Source: Pseudomonas phage EL
Sequence record: AJ697969.1
Strand: one strand, 5' to 3'
DNA: 64,000 nucleotides
Of the stretch, positions 18,618 through 47,818 are shown in pieces (within the stretch, counting starts at the first letter, position 1; each line of letters starts with the position of its first letter). A program made the translations under genes and the position numbers. The notes beneath the pieces are model-generated. The model was given only the letters and a program-made list of their open reading frames with translations, was not told the DNA's origin and did not search any database.

Positions 18618-18713
18618 ATTACGCTAGATAATTTGAAACCTAAATTATTAGCAGGCTATTGGAGAATAGTCCTTTTTAATGACTTCCCTGTAAACCAAAG
18701 AGAGCGATTCGAT

Positions 18714-36025: not shown

Positions 36026-36085
36026 GAATATTTTAAACCTACATTATCTTCCCGTAATCCTGGACTATTCTGTTTGGAGTGAACC

Positions 36086-37673: not shown

Positions 37674-39110
37674 ATGTCCGAAATGTTGGTGACATTGACC
37701 CGAGCCATTTTTGGTATGGGGAATAGCAACCACGATCACGTTCATCGTCATAACCAACTCAACCTGGACAGCACTGAGGTGGATGACCTCATCATGGAAC
37801 AGGTCAATGGAGGTGTTACCGCGGGTACCCTGAACCGCATTGCTGCCTCCAGCGGTAACCTGTCCCAGCGTCCTCAAGGCTACGTCTCCGTCGAAGAAGG
37901 CTTCGGCGTACGGCGTGGAATTGGACAACTCACGTTCGTTATTGAAAGCAATTCAAACTTCCATTCGGAAATGTGTGTGGTGGGGTACCTCTTTGGAGGC
38001 ACTGCGTCGGAACAAGGTATCTCGGATGACACCATGTTCGTTCCGGTACGGACTTGGTCAACCTTGACGACCAATACCCATGACAGTCAAGGCTTCCCGA
38101 TGACCAAGCGGATGATCGACAGTTCCCATCAGTTCCTCATGGGATCGGTGGATCAGAACAAAGACCTGAAAGCCGTACGTCCGTTGGATGTCGGGAATGA
38201 AGCCTTGGGGTTTGCCGCCAGTGAAGAAGATGGTTCTGAGATGATGTATGCCGGGACGGTGGGGAGCGACCTCAAGAACAACACCTTGATGTCGAAGACC
38301 CTCAACCTCAACCCCACGCATTATTCCCGGGAGTTGCTCAAACTGGCCACCAATGCAGGGTTCCACTCCTCCAATGGCAGTTCGTTGGAAGTGGAACTGT
38401 CCAACGGATTGATCGGCGAATCGATTGGAGAACTCTCCCCGCTCGAAAACCCTTTCATGCGGGCAATGATGCAATCCACCGGTCAGTACATGTTGGGTGG
38501 GTTCCAGGGGTTCAGTATTGGGGAAATCTATCAGGTCTTCGATAACCTGTTGGATGTCATGAACCTCAACCTGTTGAATCCCAGTTCCTTTGCGGAAGAC
38601 AACACCCTGCTCACCAGCAGTGAATATGGGTCTGCGGGTAACCATGAGGTGATTGCTACGGAACTGGCGATGATGTCGGTTCACCTGATGTTGCAGTGTG
38701 GTCTCTCCAGCCTACGGTTCTCCGCCACCAATAACCTCATGGAATATAGCACGATCATGGATGATGGTGTGGGTGTCGCTTTCGTCATCGGTGAAGCCAT
38801 GTCCATGTTGGACAATGACATGTTCGTGGAAAACCGGGTGGAGGACTTCAAGCGTCTGATTGCCCAACACTTCTTCTCGAAATACTCGGGACCTCATGTT
38901 CATTTGAGAACCTTGATGAATATTGAAGTGGAGTGTTACATGTTTGGTGAGATCGTTATTACGATTTCGTTCAATGGGGAAGCCAACGAGAAAACCTTCA
39001 CCAACGCTACCTACTACATTAATCATACCAGCAGCAGCATTGCCGGTAATGAAAACGGCCTGTTGGAAGCCAAGAACTTCCTGACCGGTATTCGTGAATA
39101 CTTCAGCTAA
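37674..39110 (+). CDS. hypothetical protein (478 aa)
   Basis: ORF with GAGGAAAC RBS. Confidence 0.55.
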   Translation: MSEMLVTLTRAIFGMGNSNHDHVHRHNQLNLDSTEVDDLIMEQVNGGVTAGTLNRIAASSGNLSQRPQGYVSVEEGFGVRRGIGQLTFVIESNSNFHSEMCVVGYLFGGTASEQGISDDTMFVPVRTWSTLTTNTHDSQGFPMTKRMIDSSHQFLMGSVDQNKDLKAVRPLDVGNEALGFAASEEDGSEMMYAGTVGSDLKNNTLMSKTLNLNPTHYSRELLKLATNAGFHSSNGSSLEVELSNGLIGESIGELSPLENPFMRAMMQSTGQYMLGGFQGFSIGEIYQVFDNLLDVMNLNLLNPSSFAEDNTLLTSSEYGSAGNHEVIATELAMMSVHLMLQCGLSSLRFSATNNLMEYSTIMDDGVGVAFVIGEAMSMLDNDMFVENRVEDFKRLIAQHFFSKYSGPHVHLRTLMNIEVECYMFGEIVITISFNGEANEKTFTNATYYINHTSSSIAGNENGLLEAKNFLTGIREYFS

Positions 39111-39124
39111 GAGGATAACCGCTC

Positions 39125-40561
39125 ATGCACGAAACCAATGAACTGAACAAACTGTACGAAGCGATGTGTTTGTCGTGGGGCGCGCAGGTTAAAGAACAGG
39201 GACGACTCGTCTTTATGATCGATGGGGAAGAATTCCCACTCCGTATTGATGGGATGACCCTCCACCTTCCGCTGAGCGAAGTCCTGGATGGGAACTGCGT
39301 GGATAAGGTCTTCTTCCACCCGGCCTGTGAAAACATCGTGTCGAAAGAAACGGAAGTGTTCAAGATCATCCGGCGGATGACCTGTATGAAACTGCTGGAT
39401 ACCTTCCGTCGTATTCCGATGGTGTTATTCACCGTTGCAGGCCATAAGCCCAAGAGTACCTGGAACCAACGTATCCACGACATGCTGGAGCCCCTTAAAG
39501 GTGCCAAGCGTGCGGTACGGGATGAACTCAACGCATTGTTCAGCCGTATGCATGTGGAAGTGGAAGAGAATGGGTTGGATAACCGTTTCATTCACTTCAA
39601 GGTATCTAAGGGCGGTGGTACCAGTAAGACCACGGGTCAACGGATCTATTACAAGACCCGTCCGGAGTTTCCGTTCTATACGGAAATCGTTCGTCGTCTG
39701 GCACGTTCGGATGGTCAATCGGATAACCAGACCATTGAAATCAATAACCACACGGTCTCCCGAGCGGCACTTCGTCTGGCCGCCCATATCTTCCAGAACG
39801 TCCTTCCGGCGGTAAACAGTCCCAGTGACTATGAGTTTGAATCGACTTCCCCGGTGGCGTCTCGTCTAGTGTCCTACATGGGGTGCTATGCGGAAATCGC
39901 AGATCAATTGAATAAGATCCAGAATACCTTCCGATCTGATTTCGATAAAGCCGGGTTGTACCCGATTGATCTGAGCTGGACGGAACGCCTGGAAGAACTA
40001 CCGGATATTTATCGCCAAGTCCCAGTACTGGATTACAACAGCCACAACACCCATGATGAAGTCCAGCATCAAGCAGTGAGTCGGAATGACATGGGTGGTC
40101 TGCTGTCGGTTACCAGTACCAACCAACAGGGTGTTTCTCAACATCAATCCCAACCGCAGCACGTTGCAGGAATGAGCGGGGACTATGACGTATCACCTCC
40201 GCAGATGCAAGCGGGAGACCGGTATGTCCGTACTGAGATCGATTACGTCGGTCAACGCGTTCTCCACCATGCGGTTAACCAAACCACCAATAACCCGGTC
40301 GTCTACATCTGTAGCCGTAAAGGGAACTTCCTGCAACGCTCTGAAACCAACATGATGCTCCAGCAAATGGGTATGTTGGGTGGGATGGGTGGTATGATGG
40401 GTGGAACGATGCTGGCCAACGGGATGGTTCAACTGCCGAACGGTATGATCGTGAATCCGCAGATGATGGGGGGTGTTTCGATGCCCACACCTACCGCCGC
40501 ACCGAGTGTATACCCGGACGCCGGTATGGGGTTTGACCTGGGAGCCCCAGGTATCTTCTAA
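39125..40561 (+). CDS. hypothetical protein with Met/Gly/Gln-rich low-complexity C-terminal tail
   Basis: ORF; C-terminus ...MMLQQMGMLGGMGGMMGGTMLANGMVQLPNGMIVNPQMMGGVSMPTPTAAPSVYPDAGMGFDLGAPGIF. Confidence 0.55.
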   Translation: MHETNELNKLYEAMCLSWGAQVKEQGRLVFMIDGEEFPLRIDGMTLHLPLSEVLDGNCVDKVFFHPACENIVSKETEVFKIIRRMTCMKLLDTFRRIPMVLFTVAGHKPKSTWNQRIHDMLEPLKGAKRAVRDELNALFSRMHVEVEENGLDNRFIHFKVSKGGGTSKTTGQRIYYKTRPEFPFYTEIVRRLARSDGQSDNQTIEINNHTVSRAALRLAAHIFQNVLPAVNSPSDYEFESTSPVASRLVSYMGCYAEIADQLNKIQNTFRSDFDKAGLYPIDLSWTERLEELPDIYRQVPVLDYNSHNTHDEVQHQAVSRNDMGGLLSVTSTNQQGVSQHQSQPQHVAGMSGDYDVSPPQMQAGDRYVRTEIDYVGQRVLHHAVNQTTNNPVVYICSRKGNFLQRSETNMMLQQMGMLGGMGGMMGGTMLANGMVQLPNGMIVNPQMMGGVSMPTPTAAPSVYPDAGMGFDLGAPGIF

Positions 40562-40577
40562 GCAACAATAACCTTAC

Positions 40578-40630
40578 CAGTACCTAGCGGGATATCCCGC
40601 TAGGTACTGTGTTTTCTCTATTTTATTCCA
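40578..40630 (+). terminator. rho-independent terminator (CAGTACCTAGCGGGA/TCCCGCTAGGTACTG plus T-rich run)
   Basis: 15-bp stem then TGTTTTCTCTATTTTATT. Confidence 0.55.
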
Positions 40631-41044
40631 GTATTTTTACGCTTGGGTCGTATTACTACGTGCAACGGCCTGGGTCAAATGGGCCTCGTCAATTATCTTG
40701 TAACTTTGCATGCCCGCACAATCCATAAAGGGATCTTCAATCCCATTCAGATAGGCGGTGACCCACAGCATATGGTTTTCAACCCCTTGAACCCTCAGGA
40801 ACCGATAGAAGTCATACCGATAGGCATACAGTTGTGCGTGAGAGACGATTGGAATCTCCTGGGTTTGACGGAGGAGTATTTCCCGTTCGGACCGCACCAA
40901 GACTTTGAACCGTTCAGTAAAGAAGAAATCACGTCCTTCACTGAAGTTAACAATAGACAGTGGCATGGAGAAGATCCTTATCGATGCAGCTAACCATTTT
41001 TGAACCTATATTATTTCTGTGACCCGACATAAGGAATTATCCCA

Positions 41045-42187
41045 ATGGAATACTTAACGACCCAACGAAGTCGATTGTATCCCAACCTGGATACTCGTCT
41101 GGTATTAAACAAAACCATAGGGTGTTCACGTTTCATATGGAACGCTCTACTGGGTAATCATAAGGAAGAATACGGTCTTTGGGTAGAGGATCCAGAAACT
41201 CATCCTAAACCGAGTTGTTCTTTAAGTTCCTTTAATCAAAAGCTGAACGAACTTAAAGTTGAATACCCCTGGTTAAATGAGGTCAGTTCTGTTGCTTTAC
41301 AACAAACAGTTCTTCATTTAACCAAGGCTTTTAGTGAGTTCTTCCAGGGTATTCATGGTTATCCAAAATTTAAATCTAAACGAGATCCCGGTGGATTTAA
41401 CCTCAGTAGTGCAGCGGGAACTTTAGCCAAGGACGGCAAGATTCGAATCCCCAAGATAAAGGGATACACCACCTGTCGACCTAAGCTCCCGTTGGATCAG
41501 GAAATTAGGAACTACAGCATTGTCAAAGACCGGGTTGGGAATTACTTTGTCAATTGCTTAGTAACTAAACCTTGTCTACCGAATACGGCTAAAGGTCAAG
41601 GACTGGTGGGGGTTGATCTGGGGATTAAATCCTTAGCGGTGGCGAAGCGGTCTACAGGTGAAATCTTTACCTTGGAGAATCCTCGAACCTACATGAAGTA
41701 CCACCGTAGACGTGTACGACTTCAACGGCGATTAGCCAAGAAACAGAAAGGGAGTCAAAACCGTAATAAAGCTAGAATTAAACTGGCCAAACTAGAACGT
41801 AAGGTCGGCAATATTCGCAAGAACACCCTGGATACCTTCACCTCTAAACTGATTAGCGAAAACCAAGTAATCAGTATTGAGGATTTGAATGTTAAAGGGA
41901 TGCTGAAAAACAGCCGGTTGGCTAAGCATATCCAAGACTGTGGATTTAGCACCCTCCGGAGGATGTTGGAACACAAGGCTAAACGGTATGAATCACCGGT
42001 TATTATTAGCCTGGTCCATCGATTTTACCCCAGCACCCAGTGTTGTTCAGCGTGTGGTATTAAACGTGAGATCAAACTGACCCTTAATGACCGGGAATGG
42101 ACCTGCGCTGAATGCGGGACCTCTCACGACAGAGACATCAATGCTGCAACGAATATCCTGTATGAAGGACTTCGGTTAGTGGTCTGA
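41045..42187 (+). CDS. tnpB: IS200/IS605-family TnpB (OrfB) RNA-guided nuclease
   Basis: RuvC-I GVDLGIKSLAV, RuvC-II VISIEDLNVKGM, zinc finger CCSACG...CAECG, RuvC-III HDRDINAATNI; 380 aa; AT-rich codon usage unlike the flanking phage genes. Confidence 0.85.
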   Translation: MEYLTTQRSRLYPNLDTRLVLNKTIGCSRFIWNALLGNHKEEYGLWVEDPETHPKPSCSLSSFNQKLNELKVEYPWLNEVSSVALQQTVLHLTKAFSEFFQGIHGYPKFKSKRDPGGFNLSSAAGTLAKDGKIRIPKIKGYTTCRPKLPLDQEIRNYSIVKDRVGNYFVNCLVTKPCLPNTAKGQGLVGVDLGIKSLAVAKRSTGEIFTLENPRTYMKYHRRRVRLQRRLAKKQKGSQNRNKARIKLAKLERKVGNIRKNTLDTFTSKLISENQVISIEDLNVKGMLKNSRLAKHIQDCGFSTLRRMLEHKAKRYESPVIISLVHRFYPSTQCCSACGIKREIKLTLNDREWTCAECGTSHDRDINAATNILYEGLRLVV

Positions 42188-42361
42188 TAGAAAATTTACT
42201 CTTTGGAGTAACTACCGAAGCCTACTCGGGATGTTAAGCCTGTGGAGCATCAGTGCGGTTAAGCTGAGCAATGAAGCAGGAAGTTTGAGGTTAAAACATT
42301 GGGATAAAGACAGTCTTAACTCATTATTGAAAAGACTGCTGTTGACTGTAATGGAGCCGTT
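42188..42361 (+). ncRNA. candidate TnpB omega-RNA (reRNA) / IS right end
   Basis: 174-nt non-coding tail immediately 3' of tnpB with several hairpins (e.g. CAGTCTT...AAGACTG); position matches where omega-RNA scaffolds of TnpB elements lie. Boundaries not determined. Confidence 0.3.
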
Positions 42362-44668
42362 ATGAGTAAAGAAAAATTGAATCAGGACCTGAAAGGTGTA
42401 AGTAGTGAGATCCGTGCCGCACTGGGTGCAGAGGATACGGATCTTACCCCTGACAGTGCAGCGGGTCAATTCCTCCAGGAAGTCCGTTACAAGTATCCCT
42501 GCGGGGAGAATCAAATCCATCCTGCTTTAGTGGGTGTCAGCAGTAACCTGATTCTCTTCCCGCACGAAGCCTCCGCGGGTCGTCTCTATATGGCGGGTAA
42601 CATGATCCCTAAATCCGTGCCGACCGAAGGAGCGGGTGAACGGATGATGGTAACCGGGTACGAATTTGAGGAACATTACGGTGGAACGGCTCGTAAGGTC
42701 GAAGCCCCTGCGAATATGCTGGTGGAAGAGATCTTCTTCGTTCAGAGTCTGGTTCCGGGTAAGGATACGGATGACTGGAATTCGATTTACGTGGTCTTTA
42801 AGAACGACGAACAGAACGCCTACGACCTTCTGGAGCTACCTCGGTATAACACCCATAACCACTACGTTGGGTTCGAATATAAATACGATAAAGAGAAACT
42901 CCGTAAGCTCCGTAAAGGTGCCACTTTCGCTAAAGGGACCGTCTTCGCTAAGAGTCCCCGTATCAGTGAGAATGGGGAATGGTGTTTTGCAATGCCGACC
43001 TTGGTAGCCGCCTATTCGGACCAAAGGACTGAGGAGGATGGCGTGCTTATCACCCGTTCCTATGCGGAACGTTCGGCTTGTATGTTCAAGCACGAGTTCA
43101 GCTATGAATGGAATGAGGATGAATGGATTCCTCTGATGCTGTACGGAACGGACGAGAACCCCCAACCGCTCCCTGAGTCGGGTGATAACATCCGTGAGGA
43201 TGGGATCGTCATGGGCTTCCGTCGCCGCATCAAAGAGAACGCGCTGGTTTCCCTGACCAAGAAGTCCCTACGAGAACCGGATCTGGTGTACGACAAGTTG
43301 TTCTATGCGCCGGTGGATGCGGTTGTGATGTCAGTCACTGTTCGGTCGGATCGGATGAAGAACCGGTCCAATAACCGGGGAACGGATTACATCGAACAAC
43401 ACCACAATGCCATGCTGGACCGCTATGAGAAACGCCAGAATGAAATGTGGAACAATGTGATCCGGTGGTACGAAGGGAAGATCGCTGCCAACCGCGGGGA
43501 AGACATTCCCATTACCTTTGACCTCGATACCTTCATTCGGAACGCGTATGGTAACTATACCCGCAATGGGTTGGGTCGTATTAACCCGTTGGCCCGAGTG
43601 GAACGGTGGGATAAACTGAAAGATTGGAACGTGACCATCGAACTGAAGGAACGGGTCAAAGGTCGTGTTAAATTCAAGTACGCGGGTTTGAACGGTGACA
43701 AAGGGGTGTGTGTACGGGTCATTGAAGACGACGAAGCTCCCACCTATCCGGATGGGACTCGGGCGGAGTTCATTAAAGATAACGTACCGGCGTTCCGTCG
43801 CCAGATCTTTTCGTTGCTCATGGAACTGAGTATCAACTATGTGAACATGAACGTTCAACGGGAAGTCAGACACCTACGGCTACAAGGGGATTATGAAGGC
43901 GCTTTCCAGGCGTTGATGACGTTCTATGAAACCGGTTTCCCTGAATTCAGTGAATTGGTTGCTCATGCGTTGGTTACGGAGGAGGAGAAACGTGAGCACG
44001 TCGACGATGTCTGTCGCCGGAAGATTTCCGTGCATGTGGTCAGTAACACGAAGTTGTATGGCGTGAACCTGATCAACGCCCTGCGTCGTCAATACCCGTA
44101 TAAGCCGCAGAAAGCCATTATCGTGAACGCACTGGGAGAACGGGTGGAAACCGAGAACCCTATCCTTATCAGCTGTCAGGACATTATGCTCCTGGATAAG
44201 TTTGGTACGGACATGAGTGCGCAGAGTATGCCGAAGGCTAACCTCTTTGGTATGCCAGCGAAGATGAACGAAGGCAGTAAATACGCCACCCCCATGAAAG
44301 ACAGTAATAACAAGAATACCGGTGAAACCGAAGGCCGGTTGCAAGTCAGTCACGCGGGCGGGCAGGAAATGATCAAGCAACTGGCTCTGGCGTATTCCCC
44401 CGAGAACCAGAAAAAAGCCTCCCAACGGGTTATTCGTGCGGATGATCCGTTTGAGATTCCTCGGTTGATTAAACCGGAGGAGTATTTGGGGAATCGGGCG
44501 TTGAAAATGGCGGTGGGAATGTTGTCGGATTCGGGTTATCGGCTGCGAGCTGAACTACCCAGTGATCGTCGGGAATATCCAACCTTTAACATGGATGAAA
44601 TCCCAGGGTTAGATGACGAGACCTTGAAGCAGCTTCAGTCATCCGAGAAACCCACTCAAGAACCTTAA
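42362..44668 (+). CDS. multisubunit RNA polymerase beta subunit, C-terminal half (separate polypeptide)
   Basis: [27 protein letters not shown] ~ [39 protein letters not shown] ~ [30 protein letters not shown] ~ FGGQRFGEMEVWALEAYGA. Confidence 0.7.
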   Translation: [768 protein letters not shown]

Positions 44669-44707
44669 CCCCATGATAGACTCACGGTATGGAGAGGAAT
44701 GTAACTC

Positions 44708-47700
44708 ATGGTAATGAAGATCAAACTCCGTGAATGGGCTAATTTACCAGAAGAAACTGTTCTCCGTTGGTTAAACACCCGCCGGTGGGTGGAGGTCACG
44801 GATGACCTGGACCAAGTCGCTCTAACGGATACCTACGCTCTGATCATTACCTGGCATGGAATGATCATCCACCGGCATTATAACGATGTCCCCTATTCCA
44901 TTAAGGAGATGGTACCCAGTAACAAGGTGGAAGGGGGTGAAGACACCGTCTATAACGATGGAACCAACGCGACGCCTATTAACCAGTTCTTAAAGGTCAT
45001 TCTTCCTACGATTATTGACCCGGTGGAAGTGGACGGGATTAAACGGCTTATTCATATCTGGCAGAATAAGCTGAATAACCTGCTGGTGGTGATGAGTGAA
45101 CGTTACGTTATTTCAGCCACCGCTGAATCCGTAGCGGAGTTCATGGAAGATGAAGGGATCTCTGGAATACGGGACCGTGTCCTGAGCAAGGAGATTTCAA
45201 TTGATGAGGGTGAGCGGGAGTTTGCGGATTATGTCCGGACCGCTCATTCCATTGCCAACAACACCCTCACCCTGCTGTCGCGTACGGGCGGGGTGGCCAT
45301 TAACCAGGCGTATCAGAAGACGATCATCCGGGGTAAAGTCTTTGACCTGAACAACTCGATCATGCCGAATGCGATTACGGTTCCGTATGCGCATGGGATT
45401 ACCAACCTGGCTGATATGCTGGGTGAACGGAATGCAGCAGGTAAAGCCGGGGTTTTGTCTTCAAAGATAAAAATCCCTGGTGGATGGAAGACCATGGGTA
45501 ACATCCGGGTGGGTGATGAAGTCGTTACACCCGATGGAGGTACCGCTAAGGTGCTGGCAGTTCACCCACAAGGTGTAACCAAGGTTGTACGGGTGCACTT
45601 CAAAGACGGTCGATATACTGACGTTAGTCCAGATCACCTGTGGAAGGTTAGACGTCATCATTGGTGCAACGATAAAGCCATGGCTAAACTCACTCGGGAG
45701 GAAGTGGAAGAACGTGTATGGCGAGTCATCACCACCAATGAGTTGAAAGACTATATTGGTCTGTCAACTAAGGTATACGTCCAACTGATTGAACCTGAAA
45801 GAAATGCCGATAAACCCTTCAAAATTCACCCGTATGTGCTCGGTGTCTTGTTGGGGGATGGATGCATTAGTCAAAAGGCTGTGGATATCACCAAACCTTA
45901 TCAACAGCTATTCGATAAGGTCCAATCGCTATTGCCAGAACATTTGGAATGTGTTTGGCGACCCAACCGTAAAGGTGATGGAGAACCTAAAACGTTTGGG
46001 ATCCGTTTTAAAGATCGTCGGTCCGAACAGCACATCAACTGGCATATCCGTGATGGCCTGAAGGAACTGGGCTTGTATGGAATGCGGTCGTGGGGAAAAG
46101 TCATTCCCGAAGAATATCTTCACGGATCGGCTAAACAACGTTTGGAGCTCCTCCAAGGACTGTTGGACACAGACGGAACTGTGGACAAACACAAATCGGT
46201 TAGCTTTAGCTCTTCGTCTAAGTTACTCTCCCTCGGAGTGCAATACTTGGTCAGAAGCCTAGGGGGGATGGCACGTCTCCAAGAACGTACTCCCCACTAC
46301 ACCCACAATGGAGAAAAAAGGGAAGGTCGTACGGACTATCGGGTTTATATCCGATACCCTCGACCAGAAGAACTCTTCACCCTAGACCACAAACGGGAAC
46401 GTGCGGTCTCGCACCAGCATACGGAAACCCTGAGACTGCAAGTAACTCATATTGAAGAACGTCCTGATGAGGAGACACAATGCATTACGATCGATCATCC
46501 TGATCATCTGTACATTACAGACGACTTCATTGTCACCCACAACAGCCTAACCAATAACGGCAAGGCCCTGAAATCATCGGAATGGTTCCACCGGAAGGTA
46601 CACATCCTGTCCGCTGTGGTGGCGGATATCGATCATTTCATGGACTGTGGAACGACCACTACAGTGCCGATCCGAATTCCCAATATGCAAGCGGCAATGG
46701 CACTGTTGGGTAAATTCAGGGTAACCGATACAGGAGAATTAGAACTCATTGATCAAACCACGGTGTGGTCAATTAAGCCAGGGGAGTGGGTTAATATTCG
46801 TAGTGTGGCCTTCTGTAATCACTACAATAGTGCTTCACCCTGCCGGGTATGCTACGGGATGATGGCGAGCTCTATCCCGTATAACGTGATGATGAAGAAA
46901 GGGGCTGATGTCGGGATGTGGTGTACCACCTCGATCTGTAACCCCATCGGCCAGGGAATGCTCTCCACCAAGCATTTCATTAGGAATGCAACGACCCGTA
47001 AGTTCGTTCCTGCGACTAAGGATAAGAACGTTATCTATTCCAATGGTGACGATATTTTCCTGACTAAGGAACTCTGTGCACCGGGCACTGAATTGGTGCT
47101 CAAAGCCGATATTGTAAACATCCTCTCGGATATCCGTTCCTTGGATGTTCTGGACAACTTGAGCCTGGATAAACTCCCGTACTTCTCTGAAGTCACATTC
47201 CGCTATGAAGTCGAAGACATCATGATGGGGGGTAAAACCCTCCAGCAGCATGCGGCTTGTACCTCGGTGTCGTCTCGGAATGCCCGGTTCTCGTTGGAGT
47301 TCCTGAACTATCTCCTGAGTAAAGGTTGGGCGAACGAAGGTAAGAAACATATTACCGTTGATTTGAGTGAATGGAATACGCTCAGTCCTATCTTCACACT
47401 GCCGTATGTTCGTGAAGACTTGGACATGCACCGGGCTCGGGTAGAGAACTTCATCACGTTCAATAAACGCAATAACGCCTGGAGACAGCAGATCGTTACA
47501 CCCCGTCTCTTTGGTGAGGTCTTAGCGGAATACTGGGGATTGATCAACCAGGAAACGAAAGGGATTAACATCATCCATCCTGAGGTCTTGCTCTATTCCA
47601 CGTTGTGTCGGGATCCCATGCGCGGGGATTATTCCCTGGCGAATGGTAAAGGACCTAAGTATTTCGTGAACTTCCAGGAGTGTATCAAAGGCAGGGGGGC

Positions 47701-47818
47701 GGGTATGCTCATGATCTACGAGAACCAGCAAAATGTGCTAAGTGATCCTAAGACATTCCGTGTGGTAAACCGTCAGGGGAGTCCGCTGGAGTGCTTCTTT
47801 AGCTTAGCGGTGAGTTGA
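44708..47818 (+). CDS. multisubunit RNA polymerase beta' subunit, C-terminal part, interrupted by an intein in the bridge helix
   Basis: after in-silico splicing, [28 protein letters not shown] ~ [28 protein letters not shown] (bridge helix); [21 protein letters not shown] ~ [45 protein letters not shown] ~ [25 protein letters not shown] (trigger loop). Confidence 0.75.
   Translation: [1036 protein letters not shown]
45446..46543 (+). mobile_element. intein with full LAGLIDADG homing endonuclease, inserted after GK in the beta' bridge helix
   Basis: starts [17 protein letters not shown] (Ala1), Hint block [39 protein letters not shown] motifs [13 protein letters not shown] and [12 protein letters not shown], ends [12 protein letters not shown] with +1 Ser. 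Confidence 0.7.

Follow-up and report, generated by a model that had tools for sequence, protein, structure and literature searches.

How does a gene for an RNA-guided nuclease of the TnpB family persist in a virulent phage with no transposase beside it? Cas12 descends from TnpB, whose survival is ascribed to RNA-guided homing in support of transposition by the transposase TnpA. The question is raised by a locus in Pseudomonas phage EL (sequence record AJ697969.1), of which a stretch of 64,000 nucleotides, referred to below as the window, was analyzed. The window represents Elvirus, an EL-like member of the Chimalliviridae whose host is Pseudomonas aeruginosa. It contains an inserted element of 1268 nt (41018..42285, plus strand) consisting of a leader, the tnpB gene and an omega-RNA scaffold, and this element is placed just ahead of a gene for a β-like subunit of RNA polymerase (RNAP). 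A sequence-only reading of the locus had described an IS605-family TnpB element and had wavered between selfish cargo and co-option. The population data described here favor selfish homing: the TnpB/omega-RNA cassette probably persists in EL-like jumbo phages (Chimalliviridae) as a site-specific element that homes under RNA guidance and independently of TnpA.

Several questions follow. Is the nuclease intact? Does the element encode a guide RNA, and where does the guide point? Could the element still transpose? What do the genomes without it look like? They are taken up in this order.

The TnpB protein

The tnpB gene (41045..42187, plus strand) encodes a protein of 380 amino acids (aa), which scores above the curated cut-offs of the Pfam models PF12323 (HTH_OrfB_IS605), PF01385 (OrfB_IS605) and PF07282 (Cas12f1-like_TNB) and reaches 301 bits, against a cut-off of 100, with the NCBIfam model guided_TnpB ("RNA-guided endonuclease TnpB family"). 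Its top solved relatives are the structures of ISDra2 TnpB (8BF8/8EXA; phmmer E = 6e-51, residues 10-376). In a residue-by-residue alignment, the catalytic D191/E278/D361 of ISDra2 TnpB correspond to D191, E279 and D364 in the RuvC domain of the window TnpB, and the zinc-finger cysteines C334/C337/C354/C357 are likewise kept. Both the triad and the four cysteines are invariant in an alignment of 22 members, the window TnpB and 21 close relatives. The earlier assignment to the IS605 family with an intact RuvC domain and CxxC..CxxC zinc finger is thus borne out, and careful alignment brought to light no mutated catalytic residue. Judged by its sequence, the window TnpB looks catalytically intact. 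It retains the RuvC residues whose loss characterizes the nuclease-dead repressors of the TldR type. Nor does it belong to a type V CRISPR-Cas system: Cas12f2 and C2c8 models score far under their cut-offs, and no CRISPR-type repeat array was found in 40500-43000.

The gene is compositionally foreign, as had been claimed from its codon usage. Its G+C content at third codon positions (GC3) is 0.441, the lowest among the 29 open reading frames (ORFs) of the window with at least 300 aa (mean 0.586, standard deviation 0.051). The overall G+C content is 0.385-0.465 here versus about 0.50-0.55 in its neighbors.

The window element shares with ISDra2 (PDB 8BF8, 8EXA, 8H1J) the domain order, the D-E-D triad, the zinc finger and the size class of the protein, an omega-RNA at the 3′ end of the gene whose guide portion, as predicted for the window, continues into the flank, and insertion without target duplication. 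However, the two proteins are ~37% identical, and the window element has neither a TnpA partner nor hairpins at its left and right ends. Almost all of its omega-RNA lies past the tnpB stop codon, and its candidate target-adjacent motif (TAM) is YTTC, in contrast to TTGAT of ISDra2.

The omega-RNA scaffold

A gap of 174 nt separates tnpB from the next ATG (42362), and this non-coding tail had been pointed out as the likely place of an omega-RNA scaffold. A scan of 40500-43000 against Rfam, in which this omega-RNA has no family, returned chance matches only at E ≤ 10. The 3′ tails of the closest protein homologues (48-61% identity) align with that of the window, and the similarity ends sharply after ..CAGGAAGTT / ..ATGAAGCAGGAAGTT although the elements occupy different contexts. 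Folding of nine tails with RNAalifold gave 21 pairs, of which 10 show compensatory changes, and one of the helices joins an invariant GCCUG to the terminal CAGG. A covariance model of the non-coding part matches the window once, at 42175-42285 on the plus strand (88.3 bits, E = 9e-21), and has 40 matches in other loci. In the 41-locus alignment, standard pairs occupy 92.8% of the cells versus 65.6% in column shuffles, double-sided changes number 197 versus 58, and pairing drops to 40-47% when partners are slid by 1-3 columns. Four helices covary across the 41 loci. The tail therefore holds a genuine omega-RNA scaffold, as had been suspected. As modeled, the scaffold extends from 42175 to 42285 and ends in ..AUGAAGCAGGAAGUU; its true 5′ end is probably some tens of nucleotides upstream, within the end of the ORF.

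The core of the scaffold, GUUAAGCCUGUGGAG...GAAGCAGGAA, is common to a wide family of TnpB elements; a text search of TnpB papers for the scaffold motif gave no match. Canonical members of the family carry a hairpin of ~20 nt and ..AGTTCAC before their copies diverge, whereas the phage elements are without the hairpin. In the window, neither the terminal hairpin nor ..AGTTCAC stands between CAGGAAGnn and the guide. A 44-aa ORF at 42231-42365, given as a coding sequence in the annotation of the related genome IR-QUMS-PaBa1, overlaps the omega-RNA and the following 5′ untranslated region (5′UTR) and is probably spurious.

Boundaries, guide and candidate TAM

Comparison with TnpB-free Elvirus genomes places the left junction after 41017 (..CCTATATTATTTC|TGTGACC..). 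The element begins with a 5′ leader of 27 nt (41018..41044, plus strand) containing the ribosome-binding site AAGGAA at 41031-41036. Directly upstream is a promoter-like motif, TTTTTGAACCTATATTATTTC (40997..41017, plus strand), which is also found in TnpB-free relatives. The right junction, at 42285, is based on the point where clade-wide conservation stops and on four distant TnpB-free relatives from IMG/VR (L389-L392); they share the synteny of the window, and their RNAP β proteins are 59-75% identical to its own. All four keep the motif TTTnAAnCTATATTATCTTC, which in the two closest is followed by one base and then by TGAG.., giving the junction CTATATTATCTTC-(C/T)-TGAG.., that is, CTTC(N) and then TGAG. 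Because TnpB-free genomes carry both, the motif as well as TGAG.. belong to the phage itself; therefore, the insert is 41018-42285, and 42286 is the first base of the predicted guide template. The ends of the element, whose definition by comparison with TnpB-free relatives had been proposed at the outset, are thereby fixed. The insertion is clean and without target duplication (TATTTC|element|TGAGG), and the element sits between the resident motif (..AACCTATATTATTTC|) and the 5′UTR of the RNAP β gene (|TGAGGTTAAAAC..).

Three other right ends were considered and dropped. A junction at 42277, with CAGGAA as flank homology, was given up because the clade alignment identifies CAGGAAGTT, which pairs with GCCUG, as the conserved end of the scaffold. 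Ends at 42312/42313, after AAAGACAG and by analogy to tails of elements related to that of Klebsiella phage Miami that end in AAGACA, and at 42298/42299 (AAAACA) were rejected because the distant TnpB-free relatives have a native TGAG..GTCTT 5′UTR after CTTC(N).

The predicted guide template (42286..42301, plus strand) comprises the first 16 nt of the 5′UTR of the RNAP β gene, TGAGGTTAAAACATTG, immediately 3′ of the scaffold end; its length is taken from the guide of ISDra2. The sequence is unique in the window, and its first 12 nt are identical to the TnpB-free allele of MIZ-Pa99 (12/12). It lies 61-76 nt ahead of the ATG of the RNAP β gene. The guide had been expected to read into the RNAP β region; the predicted guide does so within the 5′UTR, without reaching the coding sequence.

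The candidate TAM is TTTC (41014-41017), the last bases of the resident motif, which is proposed from its position directly 5′ of the insertion point. In the naive site as reconstructed from the distant relatives, TTTC or CTTC immediately precedes the predicted target. From target position 13 onward, the flank of the window is rearranged (42298..42327, plus strand): it consists of ATTGGG and a 21-nt block, 42304-42324, which is the exact reverse complement of the allele of GXNNE2 (21/21, minus strand). The block, either an inversion or an inverted duplication, is centered on the palindrome AAGAC-N-GTCTT of the RNAP β 5′UTR. ISDra2-like TnpB nucleases cut 15-21 nt from the TAM. By analogy, the rearranged block lies in the cutting zone of a TnpB-type nuclease and may be a repair scar.

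The promoter-like motif that had been noticed upstream of tnpB is present, with AACCTATATTAT at 41003-41014, and it belongs to the phage rather than to the element. It occurs in 4/4 TnpB-free Elvirus genomes and upstream of the same RNAP β gene in TnpB-free relatives down to 59% RNAP β identity, and related forms are found in Miami and Erwinia Joad. Its occurrence in TnpB-free relatives of several genera, and at a second locus of the window that has no TnpB, rules out the idea that it is part of the element. The window has three copies of TTTnAAACCTAnATTAT(C)TTC, at 18637, 36036 and 41003, all on the plus strand and in AT-rich DNA between genes. The copy at 36036 corresponds to the place where the closest TnpB homologue (L172) is inserted, but has no TnpB next to it. 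More generally, TnpB elements of the clade tend to sit 2-4 nt past such motifs.

Loss of the transposition functions

No gene for TnpA or another transposase is found within several kb of tnpB, in keeping with the earlier remark that none is adjacent, and the neighbors of the element are phage genes conserved in TnpB-free relatives. Neither end forms a hairpin: the DNA of the left end folds with -2.0 kcal/mol (z = +0.49 versus shuffles), and that of the right end has z = -0.57, compared with z = -3.1 for the right-end hairpin of a canonical relative (L183). Inverted repeats at the element ends are also absent. With no TnpA and no hairpins for TnpA to bind, transposition of the IS200/IS605 style is therefore not available to the element, which has lost everything required for TnpA-mediated transposition. 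Thus, the description as a TnpB-only element holds; as an insertion sequence (IS), with both end hairpins missing, it is no longer transposable.

Occupied and empty alleles in Elvirus

A megablast search with 39000-45000 identified seven Elvirus genomes at 98.1-98.5% identity and one poor assembly. The latter, vB_PQ1 (PQ516283.1), a frameshift-ridden record with 488 tiny coding sequences and false CRISPR calls in an RNAP gene, was discarded. The element is present in three genomes (the window, phiRU and IR-QUMS-PaBa1) and absent from four (MIZ-Pa99, GXNNE2, HHBS8_1 and HHBS47_1). Carriers and non-carriers come from Iran, China, Germany and elsewhere. The sequence-only reading had allowed for a fixed, domesticated gene shared by related phages; instead, presence is polymorphic.

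Single-nucleotide polymorphisms in the flanks are mosaic with respect to occupancy, both haplotypes occurring in carriers and non-carriers within 100-200 nt on each side. As a test of co-conversion, fixed differences between occupied and empty flanks were sought: there is none within 900 nt of the site, and the sole nearby one is at 43279. A different signal emerges when carriers are compared with each other. Over the tract 40827-42421 (1595 nt), the window differs from phiRU at 1 position where 37 are expected (Poisson P = 2e-15) and from IR-QUMS-PaBa1 at 6 where 35 are expected (P = 3e-9), the expectations being derived from a flank divergence of 2.2-2.4%. The ORFs of the three carriers show three differences, all synonymous. 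The element and about 190 nt on its left and 135 nt on its right are far younger than the genomes in which they reside; carrier-to-carrier divergence of the element is 20-40 times lower than that of the surrounding DNA.

The empty alleles are peculiar. In the TnpB-free Elvirus genomes the junction reads ..TTC-(A/G)GGAA-TGAG(G)TTAA(A/G)AC.., so that 5 nt, (A/G)GGAA, stand between the presumed TAM and the target in 4/4 of them. These match the final scaffold bases ahead of GTT (CAGGAA) and would be the footprint of a lost element. In GXNNE2, HHBS8_1 and HHBS47_1, one G is also deleted at guide position 5, in the seed. The 24-nt stretch that includes the presumed target is ~25% variable among TnpB-free genomes, versus ~2% in the flanks. 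Read in this way, the TnpB-free alleles of Elvirus would not be naive and are predicted to be resistant.

Sister elements

The close clade of the window TnpB comprises proteins with 48-61% identity, followed by a gap down to 45% or less. Its members are found in Klebsiella phages Miami and phiKp_32, Raoultella phage VB_ZK_P1, Stenotrophomonas phage BUCTxx100 and phage-like metagenome contigs, and none of them has a TnpA gene beside it. Miami shares proteins with EL and with Vibrio chimalliviruses. A search of 185,579 bacterial and archaeal species, each represented by one genome, yielded a single clade match, on a 1.8-kb contig matching the flanks of the phiKp_32 element, and IMG/VR gave no match above 43% identity. 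Judged from these searches, the close clade is found almost only in chimallivirus-like jumbo phages. The closest homologue (L172, 61% identity) lies in an Elvirus-related genome at another locus, just past a copy of the promoter-like motif.

In the Miamivirus group, phages that are 95-99% identical differ in occupancy at six or more sites, the element being present in one phage and missing from others. The DNA identity between elements from different sites is 70-84%. By this pattern they are old, site-specific and patchy lineages, like free-standing homing endonuclease genes, rather than fresh copies made by transposition. NNNAT precedes the flank of the empty allele at 5/6 of the sites in this group. 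At one of its loci (L380; GCA_008916925.1, contig SKEH01000004.1, 2612-3900), a hybrid, frameshifted tnpB (124 + 254 aa) lies beside a Cpn60 gene. Its ends are nested: the tail of one element is followed by 12 nt of the scaffold end of another and by the tail of that element, which suggests that an element invaded a resident one or recombined with it.

Other phages also carry TnpB; it is annotated in 363 phage records (e.g., Gifsy-1 GipA, mycobacteriophages and Lak megaphages). These proteins are of the same family and 37-41% identical to the window TnpB. However, they fall within the general diversity of bacterial TnpB, whereas the window TnpB belongs to a separate clade. The literature search found no paper linking TnpB with chimalliviruses or the phage nucleus.

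A homing model and its alternatives

An outline of the proposed process is as follows. Transcription from the resident motif (40997-41017) would run through tnpB and the omega-RNA into the RNAP β gene, producing one RNA. TnpB would bind the scaffold (up to 42285), which carries a 16-nt guide copied from the adjoining 5′UTR (42286-42301), and the complex would cut the naive site ..ATTAT(C)TTC | TGAGGTTAAAAC.. (YTTC followed by TGAGGTTAAAAC) in the genome of a co-infecting relative; an engineered-type naive allele, as reconstructed, would read ..ATTATTTC-TGAGGTTAAAACTCGTCTT... Repair of the break from the TnpB-carrying genome would then copy in the 1268-nt element together with a short stretch of flank. 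The carrier genome would be spared because its copy of the target is preceded by the scaffold end and not by a TAM, and footprint alleles would be protected in the same way, by scaffold-end bases between TAM and target.

In TnpB-driven homing, reportedly described by Meers and colleagues in 2023, an RNA derived from the flank guides the nuclease to the empty site, which is repaired from the occupied copy. In bacteria such homing restores the copy after TnpA excision from the sister chromosome ("transposon restorative / non-restorative homing"; PMC13565253). TnpA-independent homing of TnpB between plasmids or phages has been discussed, and for phages it is theoretical (PMC13565253). The process proposed here agrees with TnpB-driven homing in the guide taken from the flank to the empty site and in repair from the occupied copy; it differs in dispensing with TnpA and in that the recipient would be the genome of a different, co-infecting phage. 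There is also a resemblance to the free-standing and intron/intein homing endonuclease genes of phages (T4 Seg/Mob; PhiPA3 gp210). Like them, the element occupies a single fixed site flanked by conserved genes, is found in only some close relatives, has a foreign composition and lies at the RNAP genes of a chimallivirus; apparent short co-conversion tracts and alleles predicted to be resistant are further points in common. In contrast to these, recognition in the window is predicted to depend on a 16-nt RNA guide and a TAM rather than on protein-DNA contacts, and the nuclease is of the RuvC type.

Several observations weigh against homing of this kind. The low-diversity tract represents perhaps one or two transfer events, and general recombination during co-infection could make such a tract without a nuclease. 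No naive, cleavable allele of the site is present in any Elvirus genome examined, so that the TAM, like the match of guide to target, is a reconstruction; a search of IMG/VR for a naive allele with the motif as anchor gave 99 matches, the sole real one being an already-known distant relative. The guide fits the ancestral target at positions 1-12 only, positions 13-16 being mismatched because the carrier's own flank is rearranged. The footprint lacks GTT, so that the loss was not one simple deletion and its origin needs more than one step. The genome of Chimalliviridae replicates within a protein shell that excludes many nucleases; for homing, TnpB would have to enter this shell or act before it is closed. 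Finally, the sister elements of the Miamivirus group (L168-L171, L174, L176, L379 and L380) carry an element-borne tail of 16-18 nt after the scaffold, ending in A(A/G)GACA, and two sister insertions are flanked by 9-bp direct repeats (TAAGTAGTT and ACATTATCT); IS200/IS605 chemistry explains neither the tails nor the repeats. The possibility that the 16-nt tails are copies of an ancestral home site was rejected, there being no such sequence upstream of the RNAP β gene of Miami, and the tails of this group have no match on either strand of their own empty sites.

A wider interpretation also suggests itself, which we advance tentatively and to which we give somewhat less than even chances: that a transposase-less TnpB/omega-RNA lineage, restricted to nucleus-forming jumbo phages, is a natural RNA-guided gene drive between co-infecting phages and acts inside the phage nucleus. 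Action on DNA there means that the shell must admit TnpB or its ribonucleoprotein. On the same interpretation an arms race would be visible, with scaffold-end footprints and seed mutations protecting the TnpB-free genomes.

How else might an intact cassette persist? The foremost alternative is that it is passive cargo, spread by ordinary homologous recombination only, with TnpB not cutting phage DNA, for example because it is barred from the phage nucleus. Elvirus genomes are highly mosaic throughout the region, so that recombination alone moves alleles; the tract may stem from a single event, and no cleavable allele is known. However, mere passengers would hardly account for an ORF and an omega-RNA without decay and with synonymous changes only, for catalytic residues invariant in the whole phage clade, or for changes that, in each of the four TnpB-free alleles, fall precisely on the TAM-target junction or the seed, within a hypervariable region. 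We regard passive carriage as unlikely.

The nuclease might instead be primarily a weapon that cuts the promoter-proximal region of an essential RNAP gene in competitors, copying of the element being a by-product. The same phage family offers a precedent, as the intron endonuclease gp210 of PhiPA3 cuts the RNAP β gene of PhiKZ inside the phage nucleus and confers a competitive advantage (PMC11620839). The predicted target also lies between the promoter and the RNAP β gene, and a second homing element, a LAGLIDADG intein, is located in the next RNAP gene. Nevertheless, among genomes that are 98% identical, repair of the break from the carrier is homing, and the conversion tract shows copying and not killing alone. 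Such a role is compatible with homing rather than exclusive of it, and as the principal function it seems quite improbable.

Two further explanations have very little in their favor. TnpB-only elements are common in bacteria, and the clean insertion without target duplication would suit a non-autonomous IS200/IS605 (IS1341-like) element moved in trans by a host TnpA, but this is most improbable given that both subterminal hairpins needed for TnpA binding are absent, the element is known in Elvirus from one site only, the close clade is almost absent from the 185,579 bacterial and archaeal genomes, and sister elements at separate sites belong to lineages that diverged long ago and do not result from recent transposition. 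Equally implausible is a domesticated regulator that, with its RNA, binds near the RNAP β promoter and adjusts transcription in the manner of the nuclease-dead TldR proteins: a place between a promoter and an essential gene would suit it, and such repressors have been described for relatives of TnpB (PMC13565253), but the catalytic triad is intact and invariant, over half the sequenced Elvirus genomes lack the gene, which is hence dispensable, and the guide-matching DNA of the carrier has no presumed TAM 5′ of it.

Genomic neighborhood

The element is located in a short divergent intergenic region, with a 109-aa gene upstream on the minus strand. It lies just past a strong terminator hairpin (40578-40609), a perfect palindrome of 16+16 nt with a T-rich run, between a 478-aa gene on the plus strand and the 109-aa gene. 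A terminator scan found none between the element and the RNAP β gene that follows (42362..44668, plus strand; phrog_3295, E = 7e-244), which is co-oriented with the element. In the MIZ-Pa99 record, RNAP β is annotated (at 41025) as 19 aa longer, starting from an ATG within the footprint region.

Next comes a second RNAP β-like gene (44708-47818), interrupted at about 45410-46550 by the LAGLIDADG intein of ~380 aa, whose GC3 is 0.464 versus 0.60 in the exteins. The intein is a second homing element, 3 kb from tnpB. GXNNE2 departs from the window at about 45447, and its second RNAP β-like gene has only 670 aa; the intein is therefore polymorphic among Elvirus genomes.

What the element means for jumbo phages

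The bare presence of TnpB in a phage is not new. What is new is the stripped-down, transposase-independent architecture, the restriction, on the evidence of the searches, to a clade of nucleus-forming jumbo phages, and a population signature consistent with homing, with footprint alleles that are predicted to be resistant. With transposition lost from the strategy, homing appears to be what sustains the element by itself, in virulent phages. A single site offers carrier and footprint alleles as well as a naive allele that can be reconstructed, which together form a natural system open to direct testing, and the omega-RNA is small and without a terminal hairpin. If the gene drive interpretation is true, the locus would be the first natural population-level evidence of phage-to-phage RNA-guided homing and would provide a compact nuclease already adapted to entry into the chimallivirus nucleus. 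Such a nuclease may reach DNA inside a compartment that shields phages from CRISPR and restriction enzymes and hinders their engineering. The element also extends the picture of the RNA polymerase genes of chimalliviruses as hotspots of competing homing elements.

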